A stretch of 64,000 bases of DNA, taken from positions 1,440,001-1,504,000 of the forward strand of contig CAWDVE010000010.1 in the NCBI GenBank assembly GCA_963805625.1, written 5' to 3'. Numbering within the stretch: position 1 is the stretch's first letter; each line of letters opens with the position of its first letter. Under the pieces are notes generated by a model. That model ran no database searches and was not told where the DNA came from. It saw nothing but the letters and a program-made list of their open reading frames with translations. Source of the DNA: an uncultured Candidatus Rokubacteria bacterium (GTDB lineage Bacteria; Methylomirabilota; Methylomirabilia; Rokubacteriales; DASRDR01). This document shows positions 1,638-14,855 of this stretch, piece after piece. The position numbers and the translations under genes were made by a program.

Positions 1638-2088
1638 TCACGGACCCTCCCGCAGGGCCCGCGTCAGCCGCGCGCGCGACGTGACGCGGTCACCGCGCGA
1701 GTATTCTCCCACCAGCGTGCCATCCGCCTGCATGGTGTACACGGCCGTCGCCTGCACACGTGCGAGCTCCAGCCGGAGCGCGCCGTTCTCGATGCGGCCG
1801 CGAACGCGCGTCCACCCCGGTGAGCCCACCCCGAGCGACGCCGAGACTCCCCACGAGTACACCGCGACGACCTCCGTGATCTCGCCGTTCTGCAACTGGA
1901 GCTCGACGACCAGGACGTTGCCTATCCACCGGCCGGCGAACCGGGCGTTCTCCCACGGCACGGCGGGGGGCGGCGGCACGACCAGGAGATCGGGCGGCAT
2001 GGGCGGCACCGGCAGGGGCTTCGCGGCACGCGAGGCCCAGCTCGAGCCCGGCGAGGAGACTCCAGGTTCGACGTGCGCACCGTCTCAT
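1638..2088 (-). pseudogene. Putative lipoprotein with one +1 frameshift just after the lipobox (real or sequencing error)
   Basis: ATG 2088 overlaps the ABC ATPase stop. MRRCARRTWSLLAGLELGLAC continues as AKPLPVPPMPPDLLVV... if one C at ~2025 is removed. Confidence 0.55.
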
Positions 2089-2837
2089 GGAACGGGAACT
2101 CCGGGACCCTGCTGGCGGAGCACTTCCTCCATGATCACCTGGTTCAGGTGGTCCACAAGCGCGTGGCGGTCGCGCCCGCCGTCGTTCCGGATGAGCTCGC
2201 GCACGCGGGCCGGGCGCGCCGACATCATGACGAGCGTGGTCCCGATCGCCACTGCCTCCTCGATCGCGTGAGTGACGAACACGATGGTCTTCCCCGTCTC
2301 CGCCCAGATCCGCTTGACCTCCGCCTGCATGATCCGGCGGTTCTGAGCGTCCAGCGAGCCGAATGGCTCGTCCATGAGCAAGAGCGCCGGCTCGATCGCG
2401 AGCGCCCGGGCGATGGCCGCGCGCTGCCGCATCCCGCCGGAGACCCGGTTGGGATAGTAGCCCTCGAAGCCCGTGAGGCCCACGAAGCGGAGGTAGCGGT
2501 GGGCGGTCTCCCGGCGGGCGGCCTGATCGAGACCCTGCGCCTTCAGCACGAGCGCGACGTTGTCGGCCAGCGTCATCCACGGCAGCAGGCGGTCCTCCTG
2601 GAAGACCACGCCCACGTGCAGGTCGCCGTCGCCGTCGTAGGTGACGGGGCGCCCGTCGAACCGCACCTCGCCCGCTGTCGGCGGCTCGAGACCGCCGAGG
2701 ATCCGGAGAAGCGTCGTCTTGCCGCACCCGTTCGGGCCGAGCAGGCACACGAACTCGCCCTTCTCGGCCTGCAGCGACACAGCGTCCAGGACGGGGATCG
2801 CGTACCGCTTCGAGACCTCGTGAACGTCCAGTCTCAT
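2085..2837 (-). CDS. ABC transporter ATP-binding protein, TauB/SsuB-like
   Basis: Walker A GPNGCGKT, signature VSGGMRQR, LLLMDEPF, VTH. Confidence 0.95.
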   Translation of the reverse strand: MRLDVHEVSKRYAIPVLDAVSLQAEKGEFVCLLGPNGCGKTTLLRILGGLEPPTAGEVRFDGRPVTYDGDGDLHVGVVFQEDRLLPWMTLADNVALVLKAQGLDQAARRETAHRYLRFVGLTGFEGYYPNRVSGGMRQRAAIARALAIEPALLLMDEPFGSLDAQNRRIMQAEVKRIWAETGKTIVFVTHAIEEAVAIGTTLVMMSARPARVRELIRNDGGRDRHALVDHLNQVIMEEVLRQQGPGVPVP

Positions 2838-2904
2838 GGGAGCTTCATCGTACCGTACCGATCGACCCCCACGGAGCTTTCGGGGCGCCGTGCGCCGGAC
2901 AAGG

Positions 2905-3675
2905 TCAGCGCCATCGCTCGAGCCGGCGCGTCAGCGAGTCGAAGACGAGCTTGTCGGCCACGAGCATGATGGCGACCATGACGAGGGCCCAGACGAACAC
3001 CATCTGGGTCGCCAGGATCTCCCGGCTGTAGTTCATGATGTAGCCGATGCCGCTCGTCACCCCGAAGATCTCGGCGACCACCGAAACCTTGAGCGCGAGA
3101 CCGAAGCCCACCTTCATGCCGGCAACGAGGTGAGGGATCGTCGACGGGATCACGATCGACCGGAACTTCTCCCACCCCGAGAGCCGGTACACCTGGCCCA
3201 TCTCGAGAAGGCGGCGATCGACCGTCGCGACGCCCTCCACGACGTTGGCCGCCACCACGGGCAGCGTGATCATGAACGTCGTGAAGATGGGCGCCATGTT
3301 GGTCAGGCCAAACCAGATGAGGGAGACGACGATCCACACGAACACCGAGGTCGAGTTGAGGACGGTCACGACGTCGGCGACCGCGATTCGGGCGGACCGC
3401 CACAGGAATGACGCCAGACCCATCAGCACGGCGACGACGAGCGCGCTCCCGAACCCGACGACGATGCGGAAGAGTGATGCCCCCGCGTGCGTCCACACCT
3501 CGCCGGTGAGAACGACCGTGACCAGGCCCCGGACCACCGCTCCGGGGGAGGGCATCACGTACGCGCCGTAGCGGCGCGCCACCGCCTCCCAGACGACGAG
3601 AACCACCGCCAGGACGACGAGCGAGGGCAGCCGGAGTCGGTCGCTCCAGTTCGTCGCGGCGCCCGCTGGAATCAC
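2905..3675 (-). CDS. ABC transporter permease, TauC/SsuC-like
   Basis: Multiple TM segments, MPSPGAV, VVAEIFGVTSGIGY. GTG start overlaps the TGA of the stranded SBP 3' end (GTGA). Confidence 0.92.
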   Translation of the reverse strand: MIPAGAATNWSDRLRLPSLVVLAVVLVVWEAVARRYGAYVMPSPGAVVRGLVTVVLTGEVWTHAGASLFRIVVGFGSALVVAVLMGLASFLWRSARIAVADVVTVLNSTSVFVWIVVSLIWFGLTNMAPIFTTFMITLPVVAANVVEGVATVDRRLLEMGQVYRLSGWEKFRSIVIPSTIPHLVAGMKVGFGLALKVSVVAEIFGVTSGIGYIMNYSREILATQMVFVWALVMVAIMLVADKLVFDSLTRRLERWR

Positions 3676-3678
3676 CCG

Positions 3679-3704
3679 CGCCAGAAAAACTCCTTGGTGA
3701 CGCG
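3679..3704. repeat. att-like direct repeat, left copy (original SBP 3' end, RVTKEFFWRG*)
   Basis: CGCCAGAAAAACTCCTTGGTGACGCG vs CGCCAGAAGAACTCCTTCTTGATGCG at 13843-13868; 4 mismatches. Confidence 0.85.
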
Positions 3705-3768
3705 CTGCGAATACCGCGCGAACTTGGGGGACGGTGGGTTGCAGAACACGGCAAATCGTGGCACGACC

Positions 3769-3786
3769 CGCAACCTATCCGCAACC
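3769..3786 (+). repeat. Putative integrase arm-type site pair, left
   Basis: CGCAACC-TATC-CGCAACC, plus an inverted partial copy GGTTGCA at 3737-3743. Same arrangement at 13783-13800. Confidence 0.65.
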
Positions 3787-3938
3787 GGCAGCGCCTGTCG
3801 TTCACGGCCAAGGCTCGGCCCGTCGCGACCGCTACCCCGCCCTAGGCAGCCCCGCCCGGGCACCTTTGCGCTGGCGGGAGCCTCATCCCGCACCGTGAGG
3901 CCCTAACTCCAGGTCCAACCGACGCCGCCTGACTCGCC

Positions 3939-4132
3939 ATGCTCGATCTGAAGGCCCTCGCGCGCCGTTCCGCTACCCCGTGGTTCGCGACACCGAAGGA
4001 CTCCCCGTCATCCCGGGCCGGCTCGGGCAGATCGAGCCCCACGACGGGCAGGCGCTCGCGGTCCACACGGCGCGGCCGCGGGTCTTCGCCCGACTCTGGG
4101 CGGTGCCGAGGCCCAGCGGCGACGCCTCCTGA
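3939..4132 (+). pseudogene. Frameshifted and truncated small hypothetical gene (island cargo)
   Basis: MLDLKALA followed in another frame by the protein-like PFRYPVVRDTEGLPVIPGRLGQIEPHDGQALAVHTARPRVFARLWAVP. Confidence 0.4.
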
Positions 4133-4348
4133 CCCCGGAGGCGGCCCGAAAACGCTCCGGGCTCCCCACAGTCAGGGGAACTTCAGGACCCTAGGAGCCC
4201 GTCTGGCGCCTGGGGCCGCCTTCCTGCTAGGGTCAAGGCTGCCGTGCCCCCCGGAGAACGCTGGGACGCCCCGCCCCGGCGGCTGTCGGGGGGTACCGTG
4301 ACGCCTATCCAGGCCGCCAGCCCTGACCCGGATCGGGAGACGCTCAGG

Positions 4349-7300
4349 ATGCACTGTCCCCGGTGCCAGCACGAGAATCGTCCGCAGGCGAAGTTCTGCG
4401 AGGAATGCGCCAGCCCCTTCACAGGGGCCGCCCCCACCGCGCGGTCATACGCCGATCTGAAGAGTGAGGTCGAAAGGCTCGGCGGAGCGCTCACCGAAGC
4501 CCTGGAGCAGCAGACCGCGACCGCCGAGATCCTGCGGGTCATCTCCAGCTCGCCGACCGACGTCCAGCCCGTCATGGACGCCGTGGTGGAGAGTGCGGCG
4601 CGCCTCTGCGAAGCGACCGACGCCGCGATCTTTCGCGTGGATGGGGAAGTCCTTCGACTGGTGGTCTCGCGTGGCCGGATACCGATGATCGTGGGCATCG
4701 GCGATGCAATTCCGATCTCGCGCGGCTCGACGTCGGGCCGTGCGGTTGTCGATCGACGGACGATCCACGTCCCCGACCTGGTCGCGGAGTCCGAGGCGGA
4801 GTTCCCGGAGTCCAAGGCCCGGGCCCAGCGCGCAGGGGTACGAACCCACCTGGGCACGCCGCTCCTCCGGCAGGGGGTCCCCATCGGGGTCATCGTGATC
4901 CGGCGCACGGAGGTTCGGCCGTTCACGGAGACACAGATCAAGCTCCTCGAGACCTTCGCCGATCAGGCCGTGATCGCGATCGAGAACGCGCGGCTGTTCA
5001 CGGAACTGCAGGAGAAGAACAGTGCACTCACGCAGGCACACGCGCAGGTGAGCGAGTCGCTCGAGCAGCAGACCGCCACGGCCGAGATCCTACGGGTGAT
5101 CGCGAGTTCGCCGACCGATGTCCAGCCGGTGTTCGACACGATCGCCGGCAATGCCCTCCGACTGTGCGACGCCACGTGGAGCGCGGTTGTGCGATTCGAC
5201 GGCGAGTTGCTGCACCTCGTCGCATTCCACAACCTAAGTGACCCCATTGGGATCGAGGCGCTCCGCAAGGCGTTCCCCAGGGCGCCGAGCCGGGGTGGCG
5301 TCACGGACCGGGCAGTCCTCACCCAGTCTATCGTCCACGTCCCGGACGTGCGGGAGGATCCCGAGTATCGGTTCCAGGAACTGGCACAGGCGGCGGGGTT
5401 CCGGAGCCACGTCTCCGTGCCAATGCTCCGCGAAGGACAACCCCTCGGAGCCATCACGCTCGCCGGTGCGTTGCCTGGGGCTTTCTCACAGCGGCAGGTA
5501 GACTTGCTCCAGACCTTCGCCAACCAAGCGGTCATCGCGATCGAGAACGTCCGGCTGTTCACCGAGACGAAGGAGGCGCTGGAGCAGCAAACAGCCACGG
5601 CCGAGATCCTGCGGGTGATCGCGAGTTCGCCGACCGATCTGCAGCCGGTCATGGATGCCGTCGCCGAGAACGCGGCCCGGGTGTGCGGGGCGACGGATTC
5701 GTCGATCTTCCGCCTGGAAGGGGAGCATCTGCGTCTGGTGGCGCAGCCTGGATCGCTCCGGCGATCACTGGCGATCGGAGCCACCATCCCGGTGAGTCCC
5801 CACACCGTAGTCGGACGGGTTGTGTGCGACCGGCGGACGATCCTCGTCGAGGACATCCTGGCGGCCGAGGCGGAGTTCCCGGCCACCGTGTCCCGCATGA
5901 GGCAGACCGGGTCCGCCACCCGGACAATCCTGGCGACACCGCTGCTGCGCGAGGGCACGCCGCTGGGCGTCATCATGATCACTCGGGGGCCCGCGGTCCA
6001 TCCCTTCTCGGCCAAGCAGATCGCGCTCCTCGAGACGTTCGCCAATCAGGCGGTGATCGCGATCGAGAACGTGCGGCTGTTCCAGGAACTGCAGGCCCGC
6101 AACCGCGACTTGACCGCGACGAGCGAGATTCTGCGAGTGATCGCCGGTTCCCCGACGGACCTTCAACCCGTGTTCGACACCATCGCTGAACGCGCGATGC
6201 GACTCTGTGAGGCGTCCTTCGGTTGGGTCTTGACGTTCGACGGCGAAGTGATGCATCTCGGTTCGCTTGCCAACGTGAGCCTCGAAGGAGCCGACGCCAT
6301 ACGCAAGGTACTGCCTTATGTACCGAGCCGAGGGACCGCGGCCGGTCGAACCATCTTGACCGGTGACGTCGTCCAGGTTCCGGATGTCTTGGCCGATCCT
6401 GAGTACGAGTTGAAGGGAACCGCGCAGGCGACAAATTATCGGAGCGTGTTGACAGTCCCGCTGCTCCACCAGCGGCATCCGATCGGGGTGATCGCGGTCA
6501 GCCGACAGGAGCCACGGGCGTTCTCGGCGGAGCAGATCCAGCTTCTGGCGACCTTCGCCGACCAGGCCGTCATCGCGATCGAGAACGTGCGCCTCTTCAA
6601 GGAACTGGAGGCGCGGACGCGGGAGCTCACACGTTCGGTGGAGAAGCTGACCGCCCTGGGCGAGGTGGGCCGCGCGGTGAGCGCCACGCTCGACGTCGAG
6701 ACGGTCCTCCAGACGGTGGTCTCGCGCGCCAGCCAGCTCGCGGCGGCCGACGGCGGCTCCATTTTCGAGTACGACGAGGGAAGCCAAGAGTTCCGCCTGC
6801 GGGCCACCTACGCCTACGCGCCGGAGCTTGCCGCGGCGCTGCAGGAGACGCCCATTCGGATGGGCGAGGGCGTGATCGGCGGGGCGGCGGCACGGCAGGA
6901 GCCCATGCAGGTGCCCGACATCGTCCGGGAAGGCGCGTATCAAACCCGATTCCGAGACATCCTCCTCCGGACGGGGTATCGCGCCCTGGTGGCGGTGCCC
7001 CTGGTCCGGGAGGGCCAGGTGATCGGCGCCCTGTCCGTCAATCGCAAGGCACCGGGGGAGTTCCCGCCGGAAGTCATCGAGCTCCTGAGCACCTTCGCCA
7101 CCCAGTCCGCCCTGGCCATCCAGAACGCGCGGCTGTTCCGGGAGCTCGAGGCGAAGAGCCGGCTGCTCGAGGCGGCCAGCCGCCACAAGTCGGAGTTTCT
7201 CGCGAACATGTCGCATGAGCTGCGGACCCCCCTGAACGCCATCCTCGGGTTCTCCGAGGTCCTGGCCGAGCGGATGTTCGGGGAGGTCAACGAGAAACAG

Positions 7301-7915
7301 GCCGAGTACCTGCAAGACATCCTGTCTTCCGGCCGGCATCTTCTCTCCCTGATCAACGACATCCTCGACCTGTCCAAGGTGGAGGCCGGACGGCTCGAGC
7401 TGGAGCCCGGTCGGTTCCATCTGCCCACCGCCCTCGACAACGCCCTGATCCTGGTCCGGGAGCGGGCGACCCGGCACGGGATCACGCTCACCCGGAGCGT
7501 GGACGAGCGGCTGGGCGACATCGTCGCCGACGAACGGAAGATGAAGCAGATCCTGTTGAACCTCCTCTCCAATGCCGTGAAGTTCACCCCGGAGGGGGGC
7601 CGGGTCGGCCTCACCGCGACGGCGGACCGGGACCTCATCACGATCGCCGTCAGCGACACCGGGATCGGGATCGCGCCCGAGGACCAGGCGGCCATCTTCG
7701 AGGAGTTCCGCCAGGTCGGCCGCGAGGACGCCCGCAAGCAGGAAGGCACGGGGCTCGGGCTGACGCTGGCCAAGAAGTTCGTGGAGCTGCACGGGGGACG
7801 GATCGGGGTCCAGAGCCAACTGGGCCAGGGATCGACGTTCACCTTCACGCTGCCCGTGCGGCCTGACAGCGGGAGTGCGAGCGACCAGGGAGGCAGCGCG
7901 CCGCCACGGCCATGA
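4349..7915 (+). CDS. Soluble sensor histidine kinase: zinc ribbon + 5 GAF + HisKA + HATPase
   Basis: CPRC..FCEEC N-terminus; repeated [25 protein letters not shown] units; [10 protein letters not shown]-box, [21 protein letters not shown]. No TM segment. Confidence 0.95.
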
Positions 7916-8457
7916 CGTGTCCACAGTGCCGGCACGACAACCCCGGCGACGCCGTCTTCTGCCAAGAGTGCGGGACTCGACTCGAGGCGGCCTGCGCGCG
8001 TTGCGGGACTGCGAATCAGTTGGGCGCCAAGTTCTGCAAACAGTGCGGTCAGCCGCTCAGTGGACCCCAGGCCATGGAGGCGGTGTCTGGCCCGCGATTC
8101 GGCTCACCTGAGAGCTACACGCCCAAACACCTCGCCGAGAAAATCCTCAGCTCGAAGGCCGCCCTCGAGGGGGAGCGCAAGCAGGTCACCGTGCTCTTCG
8201 CGGACCTCAAGGGCTCGATGGAGCTGCTCGCCGATCGCGACCCCGAGGAGGCGCGCAAACTGCTCGATCCCGTCCTCGAGCGGATGATGGAGGCCGTCCA
8301 CCGCTATGAGGGGACCGTCAACCAGGTCATGGGCGACGGGATCATGGCGCTGTTCGGGGCGCCCATCGCTCATGAGGACCACGCGGTGCGGGCGTGCTAT
8401 GCCGCGCTCGACATGCAGGGGTCAATCCGACGCTATGCCGAAGAGGTGCGGCGGACC
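7912..8457 (+). pseudogene. Truncated double-zinc-ribbon class III adenylate/guanylate cyclase
   Basis: Four CxxC pairs, ERKQVTVLFADLKGS, MGDGIMALFGAP..HEDHA. Family similarity stops after EEVRR (~8457), before the second half of the cyclase domain; the ORF runs on in unrelated sequence to 8739. Confidence 0.85.
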
Positions 8458-8740
8458 TCCGTCCCCGTCCGTTTGCCGGGCCGGGGGGCAGGGCCCGAGC
8501 CCTACTGCGCCCACCTCCCGCCGCTCTTGCCGGGCGTGCCAGCGACGCGCTCTCGTTCGGACGCCGCGCGAGGCGTGGCCGACGCCGCGAGCGGGGGGGC
8601 GGAGCGCGGAGGACAGGACGAAAAGGTGGCTAGGACCTCCTACGTTTCTCAAGCCGGTCTCCCGGCACACGAGGTCGTGGGCTGGAGCCGTGCTCACTGG
8701 GGTTCCTCCGGAGCTTACAGGCGAGCCGGGCGCCACTGAA

Positions 8741-11700
8741 TCAGCGGCCTTCGTTCCGCTCGACGACCAGTACGCCAACGAGAACGCGTCCATGATGCGC
8801 GATGTTCTCGCCGGCCGACACCTTCCACCTCTCTTTCGTCGCGAGATCGTAGACACCCAACAAGATCCGATACGTCCCGGGAGTGGCGTTCGCCGGGACC
8901 CGGATCCATTCGTCCTGTATGAAGGTCTCATCCTCGAGTACCGGCCATATGGCCCCTTCATGCCTGTCGAGAAAGTGGAAGTCGCCTTGAAATCTCCGCT
9001 CCCCGTTCTCGATATGGACAAAGACACCGATCGCATGCCTTGGACCGGGATCGCGCTTCACCTTCCAGAAGTATCTAACCCTGACATCCTGGCCAGGCCT
9101 TGCCGGCTCGGGCCCGAGAGTGTAACCGCGAAACTCCAATGTCTTCTGAAACTCGACAGACGTCCTCACTCGAGGTTCGGTCAAGTCTTTCAGCATCCGT
9201 GACTGCTCGGCGGCCTCTTCCGTACGGCCGAGCCTACTGAGCGCGTGGATCAGCACTTGCCGCGCTTTGCGGTTGACCTCGTACGCACCCGCGGCCCTTC
9301 CGGAGAAGTCAAGGGCTCGATCAAAGCTCCCTTGGTCATATGCTTTTTGCGCCACCGCCGTGAGGTAGCGACTCTTGTCCTTGCGATCGGTGTTCAGGGC
9401 GCCCAGTCCGTTCCACCACCATCCAGGATCACCCTCCACCGCGTCCAGAGACGCCGCAGGCGCTTTGCAATGGAACAGAACCCACCGTCCGATGTCTTCG
9501 CGAGTCAGATCGTGGATACCTTCCTCTCTCATCAGGCGCTCAAATTCATCCGCATCCGAGTCTTCCAGAACGAACCCGGTCCTATCGCTCCATTGAATCA
9601 CCCGGCTCTTCAATCTCACGTAGAACTCCGGTATAGCGACGGTGAAGGGCGTGACCGTCTCGATTCTCTCTTGCGAAGCCTCCGATATCTTCGCGCTCAT
9701 CCACCGGTCCGCATACACTCTGCTTAGCCCCAAGTCGCGAATGCGCTGCAGTACATCCTGATCGCCAGCGCCCGCAGCAGCCCTCACACCCAAGTCCTCA
9801 TAGACATAGGCCTCGGCAATCATCCAGGGAAAGCGCGCATCATTCTGGTACTGGGTAATCCTTATGAGGCGGGCCGCGATGGGGGCGAATCTCGCCTCCC
9901 ACCGGTAGCCCCACTCCCATGCATACACTCTGGGTCCGCTCCAGTAGAGGTACTCCATCGGTGACCGTGTGACGACTTCGTGCCACACTCGTCCGTCCAC
10001 ACTTGTCTCGACACGAACGTCCATCGCGTAGGTGCCATGGTGCTCCCCTTTGTTCCAGAGACGCACCAATCCCACGTTGAAACGCGCGCCGAGATCGAAT
10101 TGGACCCACATCCCAGGTCTCTTGAGTTCGCCGCTCGTCCAAGACGATTCCATGTCGCGATCGAGGGCGTATCGCATGGCGTGGGTTTCGTGAGACGCGG
10201 AGGCTTGGAGACGGGTCACTGGAATCTGCCGGTATCGGCGATCCATCGCGTGCACATGGCGAACGAGGTCATAGGCCCCCAGGGGCTCCGTCTCATACGA
10301 TGCGCCGAGCACCTTCAGCGTTGGTCCAAGGCCGGGAGCTTCTCGCGGATAGAGAAAGGCGGGCTCCGGCGCTCGTTCCAGGGCATCAATATTGGGGGCA
10401 TATCTCTCAGCGATCATCTGCGAGGCGATGACGCGTTCGCGGGCGTAGAAGTTGAGGAGCTCCGAGCCGGGCGTGGAATGCACATAGAGGTGCTTTACTC
10501 CCTTGGCCTCGAGACTACGGACCAAGGCCAGATGGCCTTGCGTGAGCGCTTCGGCCCGCGGCGCATTGTTGACGACCCACGATGCGGTGGTCCATCCATG
10601 AAGCAGGAAGACTGCCGCACACCCGGCCCCGGCCACGAGCTTCCAGGCGCGGCGCGAGTGCACCAGCCAGAAGCCCACGGCCACGGGGAAGAGGGCGGAG
10701 AGTGGAATCGCATATGTAGGAGTACCTCTGCTGATATGAACACTTCCCGCGAAGAGAAGAGCGCAGATGAGGAAGAAGACCGGGAAGATGGCGGCATCCC
10801 TTAGGGGGTGCCGCCCGCTGAACGACCTGCGAAGGTGCCACAGGAAGAACAGCAGGGCCCAGCCATAGACGCCTGCAGCCAGCCAATGCGTGAAGGGGAT
10901 GCTCGATTGAAAGAGATCCCAGTCAAGATACTGCGGCACACGCTCGAAAAAGAGCAGATACAGACCCTCGGGAATAAGGGCTAGTGCATAACCGCCGCCC
11001 ATATTCAGAACGTTCGAGTAGGGATCGATGGCATAGAAGTAGAAGAATGGAGCTGCGCCAATGAAGAACGCCGGCAACGACAGGATGGTGCCTTTCAAGA
11101 CAGCGGGGGACCGTTCTCTCAACACCACGTAGGCGGCACCAGCCAGCAGTTGGTAGATCACGAAGGGGCTGGTCCACCATCCCACCCCGCCGGCAAGTCC
11201 CAGAAGGGCATACTGACCGGCCTTCCCCCAGGGCCCCTTGGCCAGGACGAGGCGGACAGACAACCAGAGGAGGACGGTGCCCAGCATCAGACCCTCGACA
11301 TACCCGCCGTGAGGCATGACGGTGTATTCCGAGAGGCGCACGGGGGTCACGATGTTCCAGGCGAGCGCCACCAAGGCGACCGCGGGGCCCAGCGTGTCCC
11401 GCGTCAGCAGGTACAATACAAGACAGAATCCTAGAAAGAACGCCAGAGGGGCGACATGGATGGACCACGGAGGAATTCCCCCCAGCACGAGAAAAACGGC
11501 CGCATGAACCATGGCCGACAGACTGCCGAACCAGTTCTGGCCGTAGTAGAAGATTGGGAACTCGCCCTTCTCGAGGATGTGCTTCCCCATCAAGAGCATC
11601 ACGGCATTGTCCGTGTGAACGTGATGCGTGCTGAAGGAGAACGCGGTTGGCGCCATCCAGATCATCCAGATGTGAGCGCCGGCGACACACAGGAACACGG

Positions 11701-11803
11701 TCGCAAAGAACAGGAGTTCGTTCCTTCTGCCCAGGCTGGCCCCAGAATCGATGGGGCGTCCGCTCGTGTCCAATCTGATGGGCTGCATCCGGGCGTCTAG
11801 CAT
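8741..11803 (-). CDS. Large membrane protein: GT-C fold (ArnT/PMT-like) glycosyltransferase + discoidin (F5/8C) domain + TPR + C-terminal beta domain
   Basis: HTDNAV first loop and FPIFYYGQNWFGS, many TM helices; ALDRDMESSWTS..PGMWVQFDLG..ETSVDGRVW..ARLIRI discoidin; TPR-like helix pair; PGTYRILLGVYD. Visibly more AT-rich than the host genes. Confidence 0.8.
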   Translation of the reverse strand: MLDARMQPIRLDTSGRPIDSGASLGRRNELLFFATVFLCVAGAHIWMIWMAPTAFSFSTHHVHTDNAVMLLMGKHILEKGEFPIFYYGQNWFGSLSAMVHAAVFLVLGGIPPWSIHVAPLAFFLGFCLVLYLLTRDTLGPAVALVALAWNIVTPVRLSEYTVMPHGGYVEGLMLGTVLLWLSVRLVLAKGPWGKAGQYALLGLAGGVGWWTSPFVIYQLLAGAAYVVLRERSPAVLKGTILSLPAFFIGAAPFFYFYAIDPYSNVLNMGGGYALALIPEGLYLLFFERVPQYLDWDLFQSSIPFTHWLAAGVYGWALLFFLWHLRRSFSGRHPLRDAAIFPVFFLICALLFAGSVHISRGTPTYAIPLSALFPVAVGFWLVHSRRAWKLVAGAGCAAVFLLHGWTTASWVVNNAPRAEALTQGHLALVRSLEAKGVKHLYVHSTPGSELLNFYARERVIASQMIAERYAPNIDALERAPEPAFLYPREAPGLGPTLKVLGASYETEPLGAYDLVRHVHAMDRRYRQIPVTRLQASASHETHAMRYALDRDMESSWTSGELKRPGMWVQFDLGARFNVGLVRLWNKGEHHGTYAMDVRVETSVDGRVWHEVVTRSPMEYLYWSGPRVYAWEWGYRWEARFAPIAARLIRITQYQNDARFPWMIAEAYVYEDLGVRAAAGAGDQDVLQRIRDLGLSRVYADRWMSAKISEASQERIETVTPFTVAIPEFYVRLKSRVIQWSDRTGFVLEDSDADEFERLMREEGIHDLTREDIGRWVLFHCKAPAASLDAVEGDPGWWWNGLGALNTDRKDKSRYLTAVAQKAYDQGSFDRALDFSGRAAGAYEVNRKARQVLIHALSRLGRTEEAAEQSRMLKDLTEPRVRTSVEFQKTLEFRGYTLGPEPARPGQDVRVRYFWKVKRDPGPRHAIGVFVHIENGERRFQGDFHFLDRHEGAIWPVLEDETFIQDEWIRVPANATPGTYRILLGVYDLATKERWKVSAGENIAHHGRVLVGVLVVERNEGR

Positions 11804-11941
11804 GACATCGATCGCTCACCGCGAGACAGTCCCGTCAAACGTTCGGTCCAGGCCGGATCCGACCGCGTGCGCTGGACAGCCGGCGCGTTGCGCCAAGTCT
11901 CCGCCAGGTACCGTGCGCTTCCTGACGCGACTTGGCCCAAG

Positions 11942-11977
11942 TGTGACCCGACCTGTCGGTCACAATTGATCACAATT
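11942..11977. promoter_or_regulatory. Candidate transcription-factor site upstream of the GT-C gene
   Basis: TCACAATT repeated at 11960 and 11970 (10-bp period), with an inverted TGTGA half-site at 11942. Confidence 0.35.
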
Positions 11978-12459
11978 CCGTCTACGCGACGGCGCGAGTC
12001 TGGACTAACCTCGCGTCACGATGCCGATGACCGCCGATGTTCCCAGGGCCGGGCGACGCCTGAGACTGCCAGTGTCGAAGGCGCCTCACTCCCTGTCAGC
12101 ACTTTTTTCACGATGCCGATGGGCCGCGATCGCGGGCACACGTGATCTTGGGTATCGTGGACGACCGGCGTGCTCGGTTCCGACCCCGCAGGTCTGCAAT
12201 CGGCGCGGGTGCGCGTCCCTGCGGAGTATCGCTACGGGCGACCGCGCACGCGACCGCACTCTTTGCGCGTGCACGGCGCGGTGCGGGACGGCCTGACCCC
12301 CACCTGAGCGACGAGCGCTTTAATGATCCGTGAGACTGTAGCGGGCCGGCCCCGACCAGAACGCTGGACACGCTGTCCAGGAGGCGCGGCGCCAAGATGG
12401 GGATGCGGGGGTCGGTGCGCTCGTCGTGATGGATGCCGCGATGTCCGCCCGGGGCGGCC

Positions 12460-12810
12460 GTGACGGCGGATCTCCCGGCACGCCGGCGCGCCGTCCGGGC
12501 GGTAGCGGGTCTCGTCCTCGTGCTGAGCCTGGCTGCCTGCGCGGCCGACCGGCTCGCCCGCGACCTCGACGCGCGCACCGGCCGGATGACGCGGGAGGAG
12601 GCGAAGCGCCGGTTCGGCCCGCCGACTCGGATCATGACGATCGCGGGCCAGGAGGTCTGGTCGTACGAGGAGCAGGCCGTGATCGGCGCGCTCCCCCTGC
12701 CGGACTCGCCCCAGGAGGCGCCCGGCCCCTTCGTCGGCCGAGCGGTCCGGCGCCAGATCCTCCTCTACTTCGACGCTCGGGGCGTGCTCATGCACTGGGA
12801 CCGTTTCTGA
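12460..12810 (+). CDS. Small lipoprotein (BamE/SmpA-like pattern)
   Basis: RRRAVRAVAGLVLVLSLAAC lipobox; GRMTREEAKRRFGPP..EVWSY..LYFDARGVL. Confidence 0.7.
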   Translation: MTADLPARRRAVRAVAGLVLVLSLAACAADRLARDLDARTGRMTREEAKRRFGPPTRIMTIAGQEVWSYEEQAVIGALPLPDSPQEAPGPFVGRAVRRQILLYFDARGVLMHWDRF

Positions 12811-12848
12811 CCGGCTGCGGCCGCGCAGCGCCCGAGACGGAGGACACC

Positions 12849-12915
12849 ATCGCGTTCAAGGATGTGCTGGTCCACGTCGGAACGAATCCGGCCTGCGCCT
12901 CGCGGATCGACGACC
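12849..12915 (+). pseudogene. Universal stress protein N-terminal remnant
   Basis: GGAGG RBS, then ATC (decayed ATG) and AFKDVLVHVGTNPACASRID, resembling the Usp start MAFKDILVH. Confidence 0.45.
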
Positions 12916-13132
12916 CCAGCGAGGCTCCTGATCCAATGCCGCCAAGCGTTGTGCCTACGCTCCGGCCGGCGGACTACAGCGGGGTCGACGAAGCGATCGC
13001 AGGCCAACACAGCCACGACGTCGTGTCGGCGAGCCGCTCGACGAAGATGGACCCGACGATCTTGATGCGCGGCGGGCTCACGGCTCAGCTATAGAGGGTC
13101 GCCCTGGCCGGCGCCGTCCTATCGGCGGCGCA

Positions 13133-13336
13133 GTGCCGCCGGAGGTCGTCCTGTGCCTCTACCGGGTGACCCAGGAAGGACTGGGCAACGTCGCCGGCAC
13201 GCGGAGGCGCGCCACGCGCGCGTGACGGTGGGACGCGAGGGGGACGACGTGGTCCTGACCATCGGCGACGATGGCCGCGGGTTCGACCTCGCGGAGGCCC
13301 GGCGCCGGCAAGGCCTGGGGCTGATCAGTCTCCGGC
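13133..13336 (+). pseudogene. NarX/LiaS-type histidine kinase HATPase fragment, frameshifted
   Basis: EVVLCLYRVTQEGLGNVA / HAEARHARVTV..LTIGDDGRGFD..GLGLISLR (N, G1 and G2 boxes). Confidence 0.75.
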
Positions 13337-13590
13337 ATTCGCTCAACGGGCCACCCTGGCTGAGGATGCAGATTTGATGATCCTCGTGGCAACCCGGAAG
13401 AGTGGGATCACGGGGCGGGTCGCCGGGTTCAAGCTCCGGGCCCGCGACGTGACGCTTCCAGTTCACGCGCTTCCGCTGCTGGCCTATGGCTGGACGGCGC
13501 TGGAGAGCCGGCGGGGGGCTCGTGGGATGTCGGCCCGCGACTGGCTGCTCGTCCTCGGGCCGGCGACGCTCGTGATGTACCTGCTCACCT

Positions 13591-13836
13591 TCCTACGCCA
13601 GCCTGCTGCTCGCCCAGGGCGAGAGCCTCGCCTACGTCAAGGATCAGCTCGGGCACGCGTCCATCCGGCTGACCGTGGACCTCTACGGACACCTGGTGCC
13701 CGGGGGGAACCGGGCGGCCGTGGACAAGCTGGATGACGTGGAGACCCCGGAGGGCTCCGAGCGCCCCGCCGGCCCCACCGGACGCAACCCCCGCGCAACC
13801 GCCTCGGGGAATCCTGTGATTGGCGGCCTTTCTTAG
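13591..13836 (+). pseudogene. Tyrosine recombinase/integrase, C-terminal remnant (absent from the ORF track)
   Basis: SYASLLLAQGESLAYVKDQLGHASIRLTVDLYGHLVPGGNRAAVDKLD: box II LGH and catalytic Tyr retained; everything up to and including HxxR is missing. Stop TAG at 13834-13836. Confidence 0.88.
13783..13800 (+). repeat. Putative integrase arm-type site pair, right
   Basis: CGCAACC-CCCG-CGCAACC, 43 bp from the right att repeat. Confidence 0.65.
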
Positions 13837-14855
13837 GCGGATCGCCAGAAGAACTCCTTCTTGATGCGATCGGGGCTATCCCAGATGTCCGACTTGAGGA
13901 ACCCCGACTCCTTGGTCAGCTTGAGCTGGAGGATCATGCTGTCGACCTGCTCGTCCGACAGGCCGTGCAGCATCTGCACCGTCTGCCCGTACGCGAACTC
14001 CACTACGTCGCGTGGCAGCTTGGTGATCTCAGTCACGATCTCGATCGTCCGGGGCTTGTTCTTGTACCAAGTATCGACGGCCTCTCCTTGCGCGTCGTTC
14101 AGGTCCTTCGGTAGCGACGGGTTCTTCTCGATGAACGCGGGGTTGACGAGGTAACAGACGTGCACGGGGTGACCGGTGGCCCGACCCGTCGCTTGCCGCC
14201 ACAACTCGATGTGCTTGACCAGATACTTTCCGGCTCCGCTGAACACAACCTGCTCGGTCGTGGGTGTCCAGCTGAGCATGGCGTCGACGGCCTTCGTATT
14301 GAGAGCGTTCACCATATCGGGCTGTCCCGTCGCGGTCACGATCTGCACGTCCTTCTGGAGATCAAGGCCGTGCGTCTTCAGCGCGAGGGTGCGCATGTCC
14401 AGAAAGGCCGTGCTCCCGACGATGGCGGCCATCCTGCGGCCCTTCAGGTTTTCCAGCTTGCTGATCCCGGCATCGCTCCGTACCACGATAGCGCCGAGCA
14501 CCGCGGTGGCGACGCCCGTGACCTTGAGAGGCACCTTGTCCTCGAACATCTTGGCGGCCAGCGCGAAGGACATGTCGATCGCGTCGACGTTGCCCGCTCC
14601 GAAGGTGGCGATGAGGGGAGCAGGGGGCCCGCCGATCACGTTGTACTCCGCCTGCCAGCCGCGCTTGCCGAGGAGATCCTCCTTGTGGATGATTTCGCAC
14701 GCCGCCCAGCCGAGCTGGAGGTACGCGAAGCGCACCTTGCCCTTCCCCTGGGCGATCGCCCGGCGCGCCGGGAAACCGCCCGCCAGGGCGGCGCCGGCGG
14801 CGGCGCCGGTCCGCAAGAAGTCCCGCCGCCTCACGTGCCGTTCCTCAGGTCGCAT
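13833..14855 (-). CDS. ABC substrate-binding protein, SsuA/NMT1-like, Tat-exported
   Basis: RRRDFL Tat motif; ISKLENLKGRRMA; VDAMLSWTP. Confidence 0.9.
   Translation of the reverse strand: MRPEERHVRRRDFLRTGAAAGAALAGGFPARRAIAQGKGKVRFAYLQLGWAACEIIHKEDLLGKRGWQAEYNVIGGPPAPLIATFGAGNVDAIDMSFALAAKMFEDKVPLKVTGVATAVLGAIVVRSDAGISKLENLKGRRMAAIVGSTAFLDMRTLALKTHGLDLQKDVQIVTATGQPDMVNALNTKAVDAMLSWTPTTEQVVFSGAGKYLVKHIELWRQATGRATGHPVHVCYLVNPAFIEKNPSLPKDLNDAQGEAVDTWYKNKPRTIEIVTEITKLPRDVVEFAYGQTVQMLHGLSDEQVDSMILQLKLTKESGFLKSDIWDSPDRIKKEFFWRSA
13843..13868. repeat. att-like direct repeat, right copy (within the current SBP 3' end, RIKKEFFWRSA*)
   Basis: 22/26 identity to 3679-3704. Confidence 0.85.

Follow-up and report, generated by a model that had tools for sequence, protein, structure and literature searches.

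A probable tyrosine-integrase island remnant at the very end of a transporter gene from an uncultured Candidatus Rokubacteria bacterium, with a candidate host promoter in one attachment arm

Phage 21 and e14 enter the host chromosome at the 3′ end of icd, and the attachment (att) arms of phage lambda carry sites for both integrase and excisionase. Streptococcal ICEs (integrative and conjugative elements) are placed at the 3′ ends of rplL, rpmG, guaA and lysS (PMC4701971), attP is described as often completing the gene entered, at many sites (PMC12884075), and coding sequences (CDS) and RNA targets are in balance among proviruses with tyrosine integrases (PMC13626063). Of the 1.76 million islands surveyed with TIGER/Islander, 43.4% lie within coding sequence, and tRNA/tmRNA genes hold 33.8% (PMC12424338), and a protein-coding target is not the unusual choice for which a sequence-only reading of the present locus had taken it. 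Here we describe an element of 10.2 kb from an uncultured Candidatus Rokubacteria bacterium, contained in a window of 64,000 nucleotides (contig CAWDVE010000010.1, positions 1,440,001 to 1,504,000; window refers throughout to this whole stretch). We consider it highly probable that this element is the remnant of a tyrosine-integrase island which entered the last codons of a gene for an ABC transporter substrate-binding protein (SBP), that its attachment site gave the gene its present end, RSA* (asterisks denote stops), that it is now probably immobile, and that its arm on the side of the transporter permease is probably a host promoter.

The element is a known kind of island, at a target for which we found no description in the literature: listings and abstracts yielded no published account of an ABC/SBP target, of integrases of Rokubacteria, or of rescue by coupling or leaderless translation at att sites. 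It shares with the icd phages and the streptococcal ICEs a short direct repeat containing the gene end, an adjoining PF00589 integrase of about 400 amino acids and a target that is left whole, whereas it differs from them in that the target is an accessory transporter gene in mid-operon, only a tail of the integrase is present, no conjugation or phage genes are recognised by Pfam, and the site is fixed across many species. Like the TIGER/Islander islands, it combines integration into a CDS by a tyrosine integrase with a size near the 10-kb peak and cannot be assigned to prophages or ICEs (PMC12424338). For an abundant and uncultured soil lineage, it provides an att site mapped with precision and a hotspot that island finders would probably miss, as such pipelines need a recognisable integrase gene and that gene is gone. 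SpyCIM5 of Streptococcus pyogenes, in which a cryptic promoter in the dead int gene rescues mutL (PMC3430984), is comparable in being stuck in mid-operon after integrase decay, with rescue of downstream genes by a promoter inside the dead element, which is here a prediction. Primer extension in one strain placed the SpyCIM5 promoter within the int pseudogene (PMC3430984), whereas the candidate in the window lies in an att arm, is conserved in eight species and may also restore translational coupling. To carry a spare gene end is nothing new; what is less ordinary is that the host has likely retained one end of a dead element as promoter for the genes which that element cut off.

The attachment site, its arms and the integrase

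Two stretches of the window, 3679-3704 and 13843-13868, are identical at 22/26 nt with an offset of 10,164, and the peptide ends they had been read to encode stand: on the minus strand the SBP gene ends RIKKEFFWRSA* (stop at 13835-13833), while the displaced end, RVTKEFFWRG*, has its stop at 3674-3672, overlapping the permease GTG at 3675-3673. Likeness to the SBP at the displaced copy ends within 9 nt of the core, where an att-arm signature takes over. The att core within the match comprises 17 nt, 16/17 of them identical in the window, with a single mismatch at 3687; in the 7.27-Mb host genome it was found in no third place within one mismatch and in one unrelated place within two, and the FFWR-coding motif occurs at the two att copies only. 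An earlier placement of the crossover in one of two blocks of the repeat did not survive, as the mismatch is absent elsewhere (in the labels used here G denotes genomes, G000 being the window's own, L loci or contigs, P integrase proteins and X sequencing runs). The core repeat is 17/17 in G013, and position 3687 matches the other copy in contigs of X3 and X5, so that the mismatch is recent and unusable for placing the crossover, which may lie anywhere in the 17-nt core; a scan of the core for dyad symmetry (best 6-7/11 matches) gave no clear centre and did not place it either. The SBP itself scores below the NCBIfam cut-offs for SsuA/TauA.

The SBP orthologue was searched for in 61 genomes, of which 36 had orthologue-level matches (E<1e-130), and 30 loci were fetched; the same-genus comparison covers the 12 species that hold both SBP and permease, and that of other genera 18 loci. 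The site is occupied in eight of the 12 species (G000, G002, G004, G006, G008, G009, G013 and G014), where the permease is preceded by an SBP end of the RSA*/RPA* type, then a gap measuring 358 bp to 10.2 kb, and the old end in decayed form; a 1-nt slip alters the SBP end in G013, and in G008 the contig breaks after the displaced copy. The uninterrupted allele that had been predicted for relatives, KKEFFWRG* running into the permease, was found in G012 of the same genus, with a gap of 12 nt, and an attB in the last SBP codons is supported; G007 is likewise empty, its EFFWRG* running on to the permease. The contrast of RSA*/RPA*-type ends at occupied sites with RG* in empty alleles and displaced copies also bears out the proposal that the element supplies a new SBP C-terminus. 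In other genera the permease lies within 400 nt of the SBP in 18/18 loci and the site is occupied in 0/18. The permease is 89-97% identical in the other occupied species, and G005 has an island-type SBP end with the displaced copy absent. Two observations on individual alleles may be added: in G001 (L015) a 0.5-kb PF04392 fragment separates the K codon of the same core from the E codon, with the SBP truncated and no arms, and the apparent start codon of the permease in G012, G009 and G002 (L008, L037, L039) is a CTG that overlaps the stop of the SBP (CTGA), there being no ATG, GTG or TTG between that CTG and the first conserved residues of the permease.

Arm-type repeats are present on both sides of the core in the window, with CGCAACC pairs on the same strand, one lying some 43 nt in from the core on the SBP side and the other some 73 nt in from that on the permease side (Table 1). 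Exact GCAACC pairs number six in the whole genome, two of them at these two arms, and a GCAACC pair within one mismatch occurs at the 3′ end of 41/83 related integrases. The architecture of the far end (the pair, 10-bp TGCC repeats and an inverted copy) gave 15 hits in 183 genomes of the order, five at the SBP site and ten at other targets in the order, and 0 hits with the reversed pattern as control. An intact 8.1-kb island of the same integrase family in G019 has both arms around an 18-nt repeat. By likeness to lambda, the arm repeats are likely to be integrase arm sites together with excisionase sites. A second, tandem remnant of the same arm type lies beside a transposase fragment at G000:C17:294560-294830.

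The frame that ends at the right copy had been read as a tyrosine-integrase tail (LGH..Y), and rightly so: Pfam on its own misses the 77-aa tail, but at E<=1e-10 it has 229 matches among longer proteins, 119/120 of those listed carrying PF00589. Its stop overlaps that of the SBP, 6 nt from the right core copy. The three proteins compared with it in Table 1 have the full-length cluster members P0121, P0122 and P0124, and these full-length kin show PF00589 together with R, K, HxxR, LGH and Y positions, read from the alignment, to which we presume the catalytic roles belong. No close full-length copy was found in the host genome, where other recombinase matches show 25-34% identity when long, and at most 48% when they span 44-58 residues. 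That longer homologues of the tail should abut EFFWR-coding sequence found support in protein C-termini. P0002 (404 aa) and P0121 (403 aa) end IGGLS*, as does the window tail, and P0004 and P0122 (429 aa) end in ATPAQP, 14 aa and ARRTPS*, an ending that matches the window's +1 frame through the arm, antisense over the SBP KKEFFW codons, with the same spacing; ARRTP occurs within the last 60 residues in 2/238 proteins only, namely P0004 and P0122. In a quick tree of 60 chosen rows, P0002, P0004, P0121 and P0124 and their kin form one clade (SH-aLRT 99), and judging from these sequences it is probably this small clade that uses the att site. At the DNA level the integrase tail adjoins the SBP in G014 and in metagenome contig L103, which has the same SBP end, arm and integrase tail as the window, and an X3 contig tracks the window to 13592 and then differs over 41 letters, exactly at the integrase cut. 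At 13153-13600 an HATPase piece and a small membrane open reading frame are fused directly to the cut tail.

Several results weigh against this account. An SBP was near the integrase in 0/83 integrase loci, no full-length integrase was found at the SBP site among the matches in 251 genomes of the phylum or in viral contigs, and no attB or attP joint was among those listed for the contigs of 7 runs, which were used rather than reads and which drop rare forms. Metagenome contigs (one hit, again a tail), genome contigs, viral contigs and 183 to 251 genomes of the order and phylum yielded no intact element at the SBP site. As no full-length integrase was found there in DNA, the link to the full-length enzymes rests on the protein C-termini. 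The radC element of G008 was rejected as a source, its integrase being only 52% identical and outside the SBP clade despite a similar core and arm; in that genome (L134:1206-1300) a full-length related integrase lies in mid-radC, with a core about 2/18 nt off the SBP core, and radC is truncated. In the window's own genome radC is intact.

A lambda-like integrase of about 400 aa, from the clade of P0002, P0004, P0121 and P0124, would have acted on attB in the codons KEFFWR and on an attP at its own gene's 3′ end, recombining the two and leaving the SBP whole and one residue longer while the old end KEFFWRG* moved 10 kb off together with the permease start. Restoration of the gene also restores attB, so that the way would be open to further related elements. 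Turnover would then have affected the SBP-side arm and the cargo, with the permease-side arm roughly following host descent, and the split operon would call for a second repair, that of transcription, for which the conserved permease-side arm is the candidate.

Table 1. Positions in the window of the island remnant, its target and its cargo
Feature	Position	Strand	Basis or remark
Orphaned ABC permease (2905-3675) and ATPase (2085-2837)	2085..3675	-	Pfam
Possible frame of 25 codons, leaderless, up to the displaced SBP stop that overlaps the permease start	3672..3749	-	open and in frame in 7/8 species
Permease-side core copy, inside the displaced original SBP end (KEFFWRG*)	3679..3695	.	decays across species
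Permease-side arm: CGCAACC pair (3769-3786), 10-bp-period TGCC repeats, one inverted arm copy (3737-3744)	3737..3786	.	
Promoter-like blocks: TTGCGG (3784-3779), 18 nt, TG and CACGAT (3760-3755), GTG (3749-3747)	3747..3786	-	predicted outward promoter
Remnant of a small gene without Pfam match	3932..4132	+	beside same-family integrases elsewhere
Five-GAF histidine kinase and truncated zinc-ribbon adenylate/guanylate cyclase	4244..8739	+	Pfam
1020-aa membrane protein with F5/8 type C domain, lower GC (58-62%)	8741..11803	-	Pfam
Tyrosine-integrase remnant, last 81 codons, LGH and Tyr only	13591..13836	+	77-83% identical to P0001/P0002/P0004
Arm on the SBP side: a direct pair of CGCAACC within the 3′ end of the integrase	13783..13800	+	likely integrase arm-type sites
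Element-derived replacement end, RSA* in place of host RG*	13833..13842	-	RSA*/RPA*-type ends in occupied genomes, RG* in empty
Target gene: NMT1/SsuA-like ABC SBP, TAT signal, 340 aa, now ending FFWRSA*	13833..14855	-	Pfam NMT1_2/NMT1
SBP-side copy of the 17-nt att core (codons K-E-F-F-W-R)	13843..13859	.	repeat comparison

The permease-side arm as a candidate host promoter

Whether the host uses the permease-side arm as a promoter for the orphaned permease and ATPase is, on the pattern of conservation, a proposition with about even chances. Across species the arm shows, facing the permease, TTGCGG, 18 nt, TG-n-CA(C/G)GAT, 5 nt and GTG, a layout that is sigma70-like by the sigma70 promoter consensus. 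The two blocks, which were picked after the alignment had been viewed, are invariant at 25/28 columns in eight species, as compared to 20/122 four-fold sites, 2/12 columns between the blocks, 7/52 further on and 4/17 in the displaced core of the occupied species. The -10 box A is found in 8/8 arms at the SBP site and 0/10 arms at other targets, for which common ancestry could account. The nearest cargo in the window points away from the permease and ATPase.

A number of observations speak against promoter use. A consensus promoter scan of both element ends gave 0 hits, each box has only 3/6 consensus matches, and the blocks overlap recombination sites. Upstream of genes the pattern TG.CA..AT has a weak strand bias (40 vs 23 in 2,471 upstream regions defined by rough gene calls; the comparison class TG.TA..AT gives 60 vs 13), and one 156-nt contig of RNA run X17 matches 3688-3839 without a mismatch and crosses the predicted start. 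The missing consensus promoter, the weak sense bias and the X17 contig, together with the coincidence of the blocks with the arm repeat of the family and the 10-bp repeats, are also what would be expected if the blocks were integrase and excisionase sites only, kept by mobilisation in trans and with no role for the host. To this explanation we give a real but rather less than even chance, for decay has reached the neighbouring core, the second copy of the arm and the SBP-side arm but spared the blocks, which makes recombination there unlikely, and G011 has the same blocks with the same spacing before an unrelated gene. The X17 contig, which may come from either strand and is the only long piece listed for that run, might reflect a small RNA, read-through or carried-over DNA; lack of permease or SBP cover in X17 is no evidence. 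A terminator scan of both element ends gave 0 hits.

If the arm does act as a host promoter, it may do so together with the frame that runs from GTG to the displaced stop, which measures 25 codons in six species and 20 in G008 (15-nt deletion), is +1 in G014, and in G011 again ends on the ATGA of the unrelated gene. A stop-free frame of 25 codons is not special, as the permease frame also has 0 stops across the eight species; the codon overlapping the stop is CTG in G002, G006, G009 and G012, which would suit coupling, yet other in-frame starts exist. The fuller proposal, namely that the att arm was domesticated such that its recombination sites form a sigma70 promoter whose transcript begins at the GTG, with a leaderless frame of 25 codons leading through the displaced SBP end to the permease start, so that transcription and translational coupling are both restored, is on this sequence evidence quite doubtful. 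Were it true, the scar of a dead island would be under selection as a regulatory module, one by which the permease and ATPase are uncoupled from the SBP across the genus and which, as in G011, can be reused before other genes. An arm with promoter and coupling frame would also mean that an insertion in mid-operon was made permanent by repair of the gene end from attP and repair of expression from the other arm.

Age and turnover of the site

The site is old and shared across the genus. It is most simply explained by an early first entry, with later renewal at the attB so regenerated and loss of integrase and cargo, the element in the window now being probably an immobile relic. The alternative of a single ancient insertion in the ancestor of the genus, with cargo changed by transposons or homologous exchange, empty alleles produced by excision or conversion, and no reuse of the att site, is possible, with the balance tilted clearly against it. 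It agrees with the confinement of occupied alleles to one genus, with the position of empty G007 as sister to the other 11 same-genus species (100/99), with a DDE transposase among the cargo, and with the divergence of the neutral parts of the permease-side arm, which are 62-66% identical among the eight species, near the 66% of permease four-fold sites. An occupied clade was neither shown nor rejected (AU p=0.15), and the permease-side arm follows the host loosely, with rho 0.54 (Mantel p=0.058); neither result separates one entry from several, and both count against repeated entry as we propose it. Against a single insertion, the SBP-side arm does not track SBP divergence (rho 0.13), that of G000 being 60% identical to the arm of its closest host G013 and 80% to the arm of G014 while the four-fold sites of G000 and G013 are 90% identical. 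Furthermore, a second, internal arm is present in G009 and has a pseudo-permease start similar to that of G002, full-length integrases of the clade still exist, and a close strain in run X2 departs from the window right after the SBP stop. The SBPs of G000, G002, G013 and G014 form a long-branch clade (0.18) that is not seen in permease or rpoB trees, which suggests allele replacement.

The notion that 3672-3704 was left by a deleted SBP paralogue as its tail, or matches by chance, beside an incidental integrase tail, for which the shortness of the match and the fragmentary integrase might speak, has next to no probability, being ruled out by the empty allele of G012 and by the arm signature; empty relatives with one SBP directly before the permease, and an FFWR motif confined to two places in the genome, also speak against it.

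Cargo and other targets of the integrase family

The cargo has turned over among the occupied sites, where it includes kinases, a DDE transposase, OmpA and a response regulator, and the occupied spacers share little apart from their two ends. Pfam revealed no virion, replication or conjugation genes in the cargo of the window, nor in 184 spacer frames from the window, seven relatives and L103, and gene content does not place the element among prophages or ICEs. Homologues of the small gene remnant at 3932..4132 are found at the integrase loci L113, L115 and L130 and at four other places in the genome.

A tRNA lies just downstream in 43/83 loci of this integrase family, and members in the order also adjoin glutamine-synthetase-like, ChsH2-like, sigma54-regulator, radC, luciferase-like, kinase and glutaredoxin genes. 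Two distant clades (L076, L078, L123) enter genes of sigma54-type response regulators immediately behind the AAA+ domain and seem to sever the C-terminal part, and several family elements (L334, L338, L342) have their core on an apparent intergenic -10 box (such as TGCCAGAAT, TACAAT or TAGAAT). At L074, L079, L121 and L131, glutaredoxin-like genes lie just downstream of the integrases, whose stop abuts their start, and carry an in-frame TGA in an xTUxxC-like motif, which we take to be a selenocysteine motif in such genes and which suggests that the TGA encodes selenocysteine.

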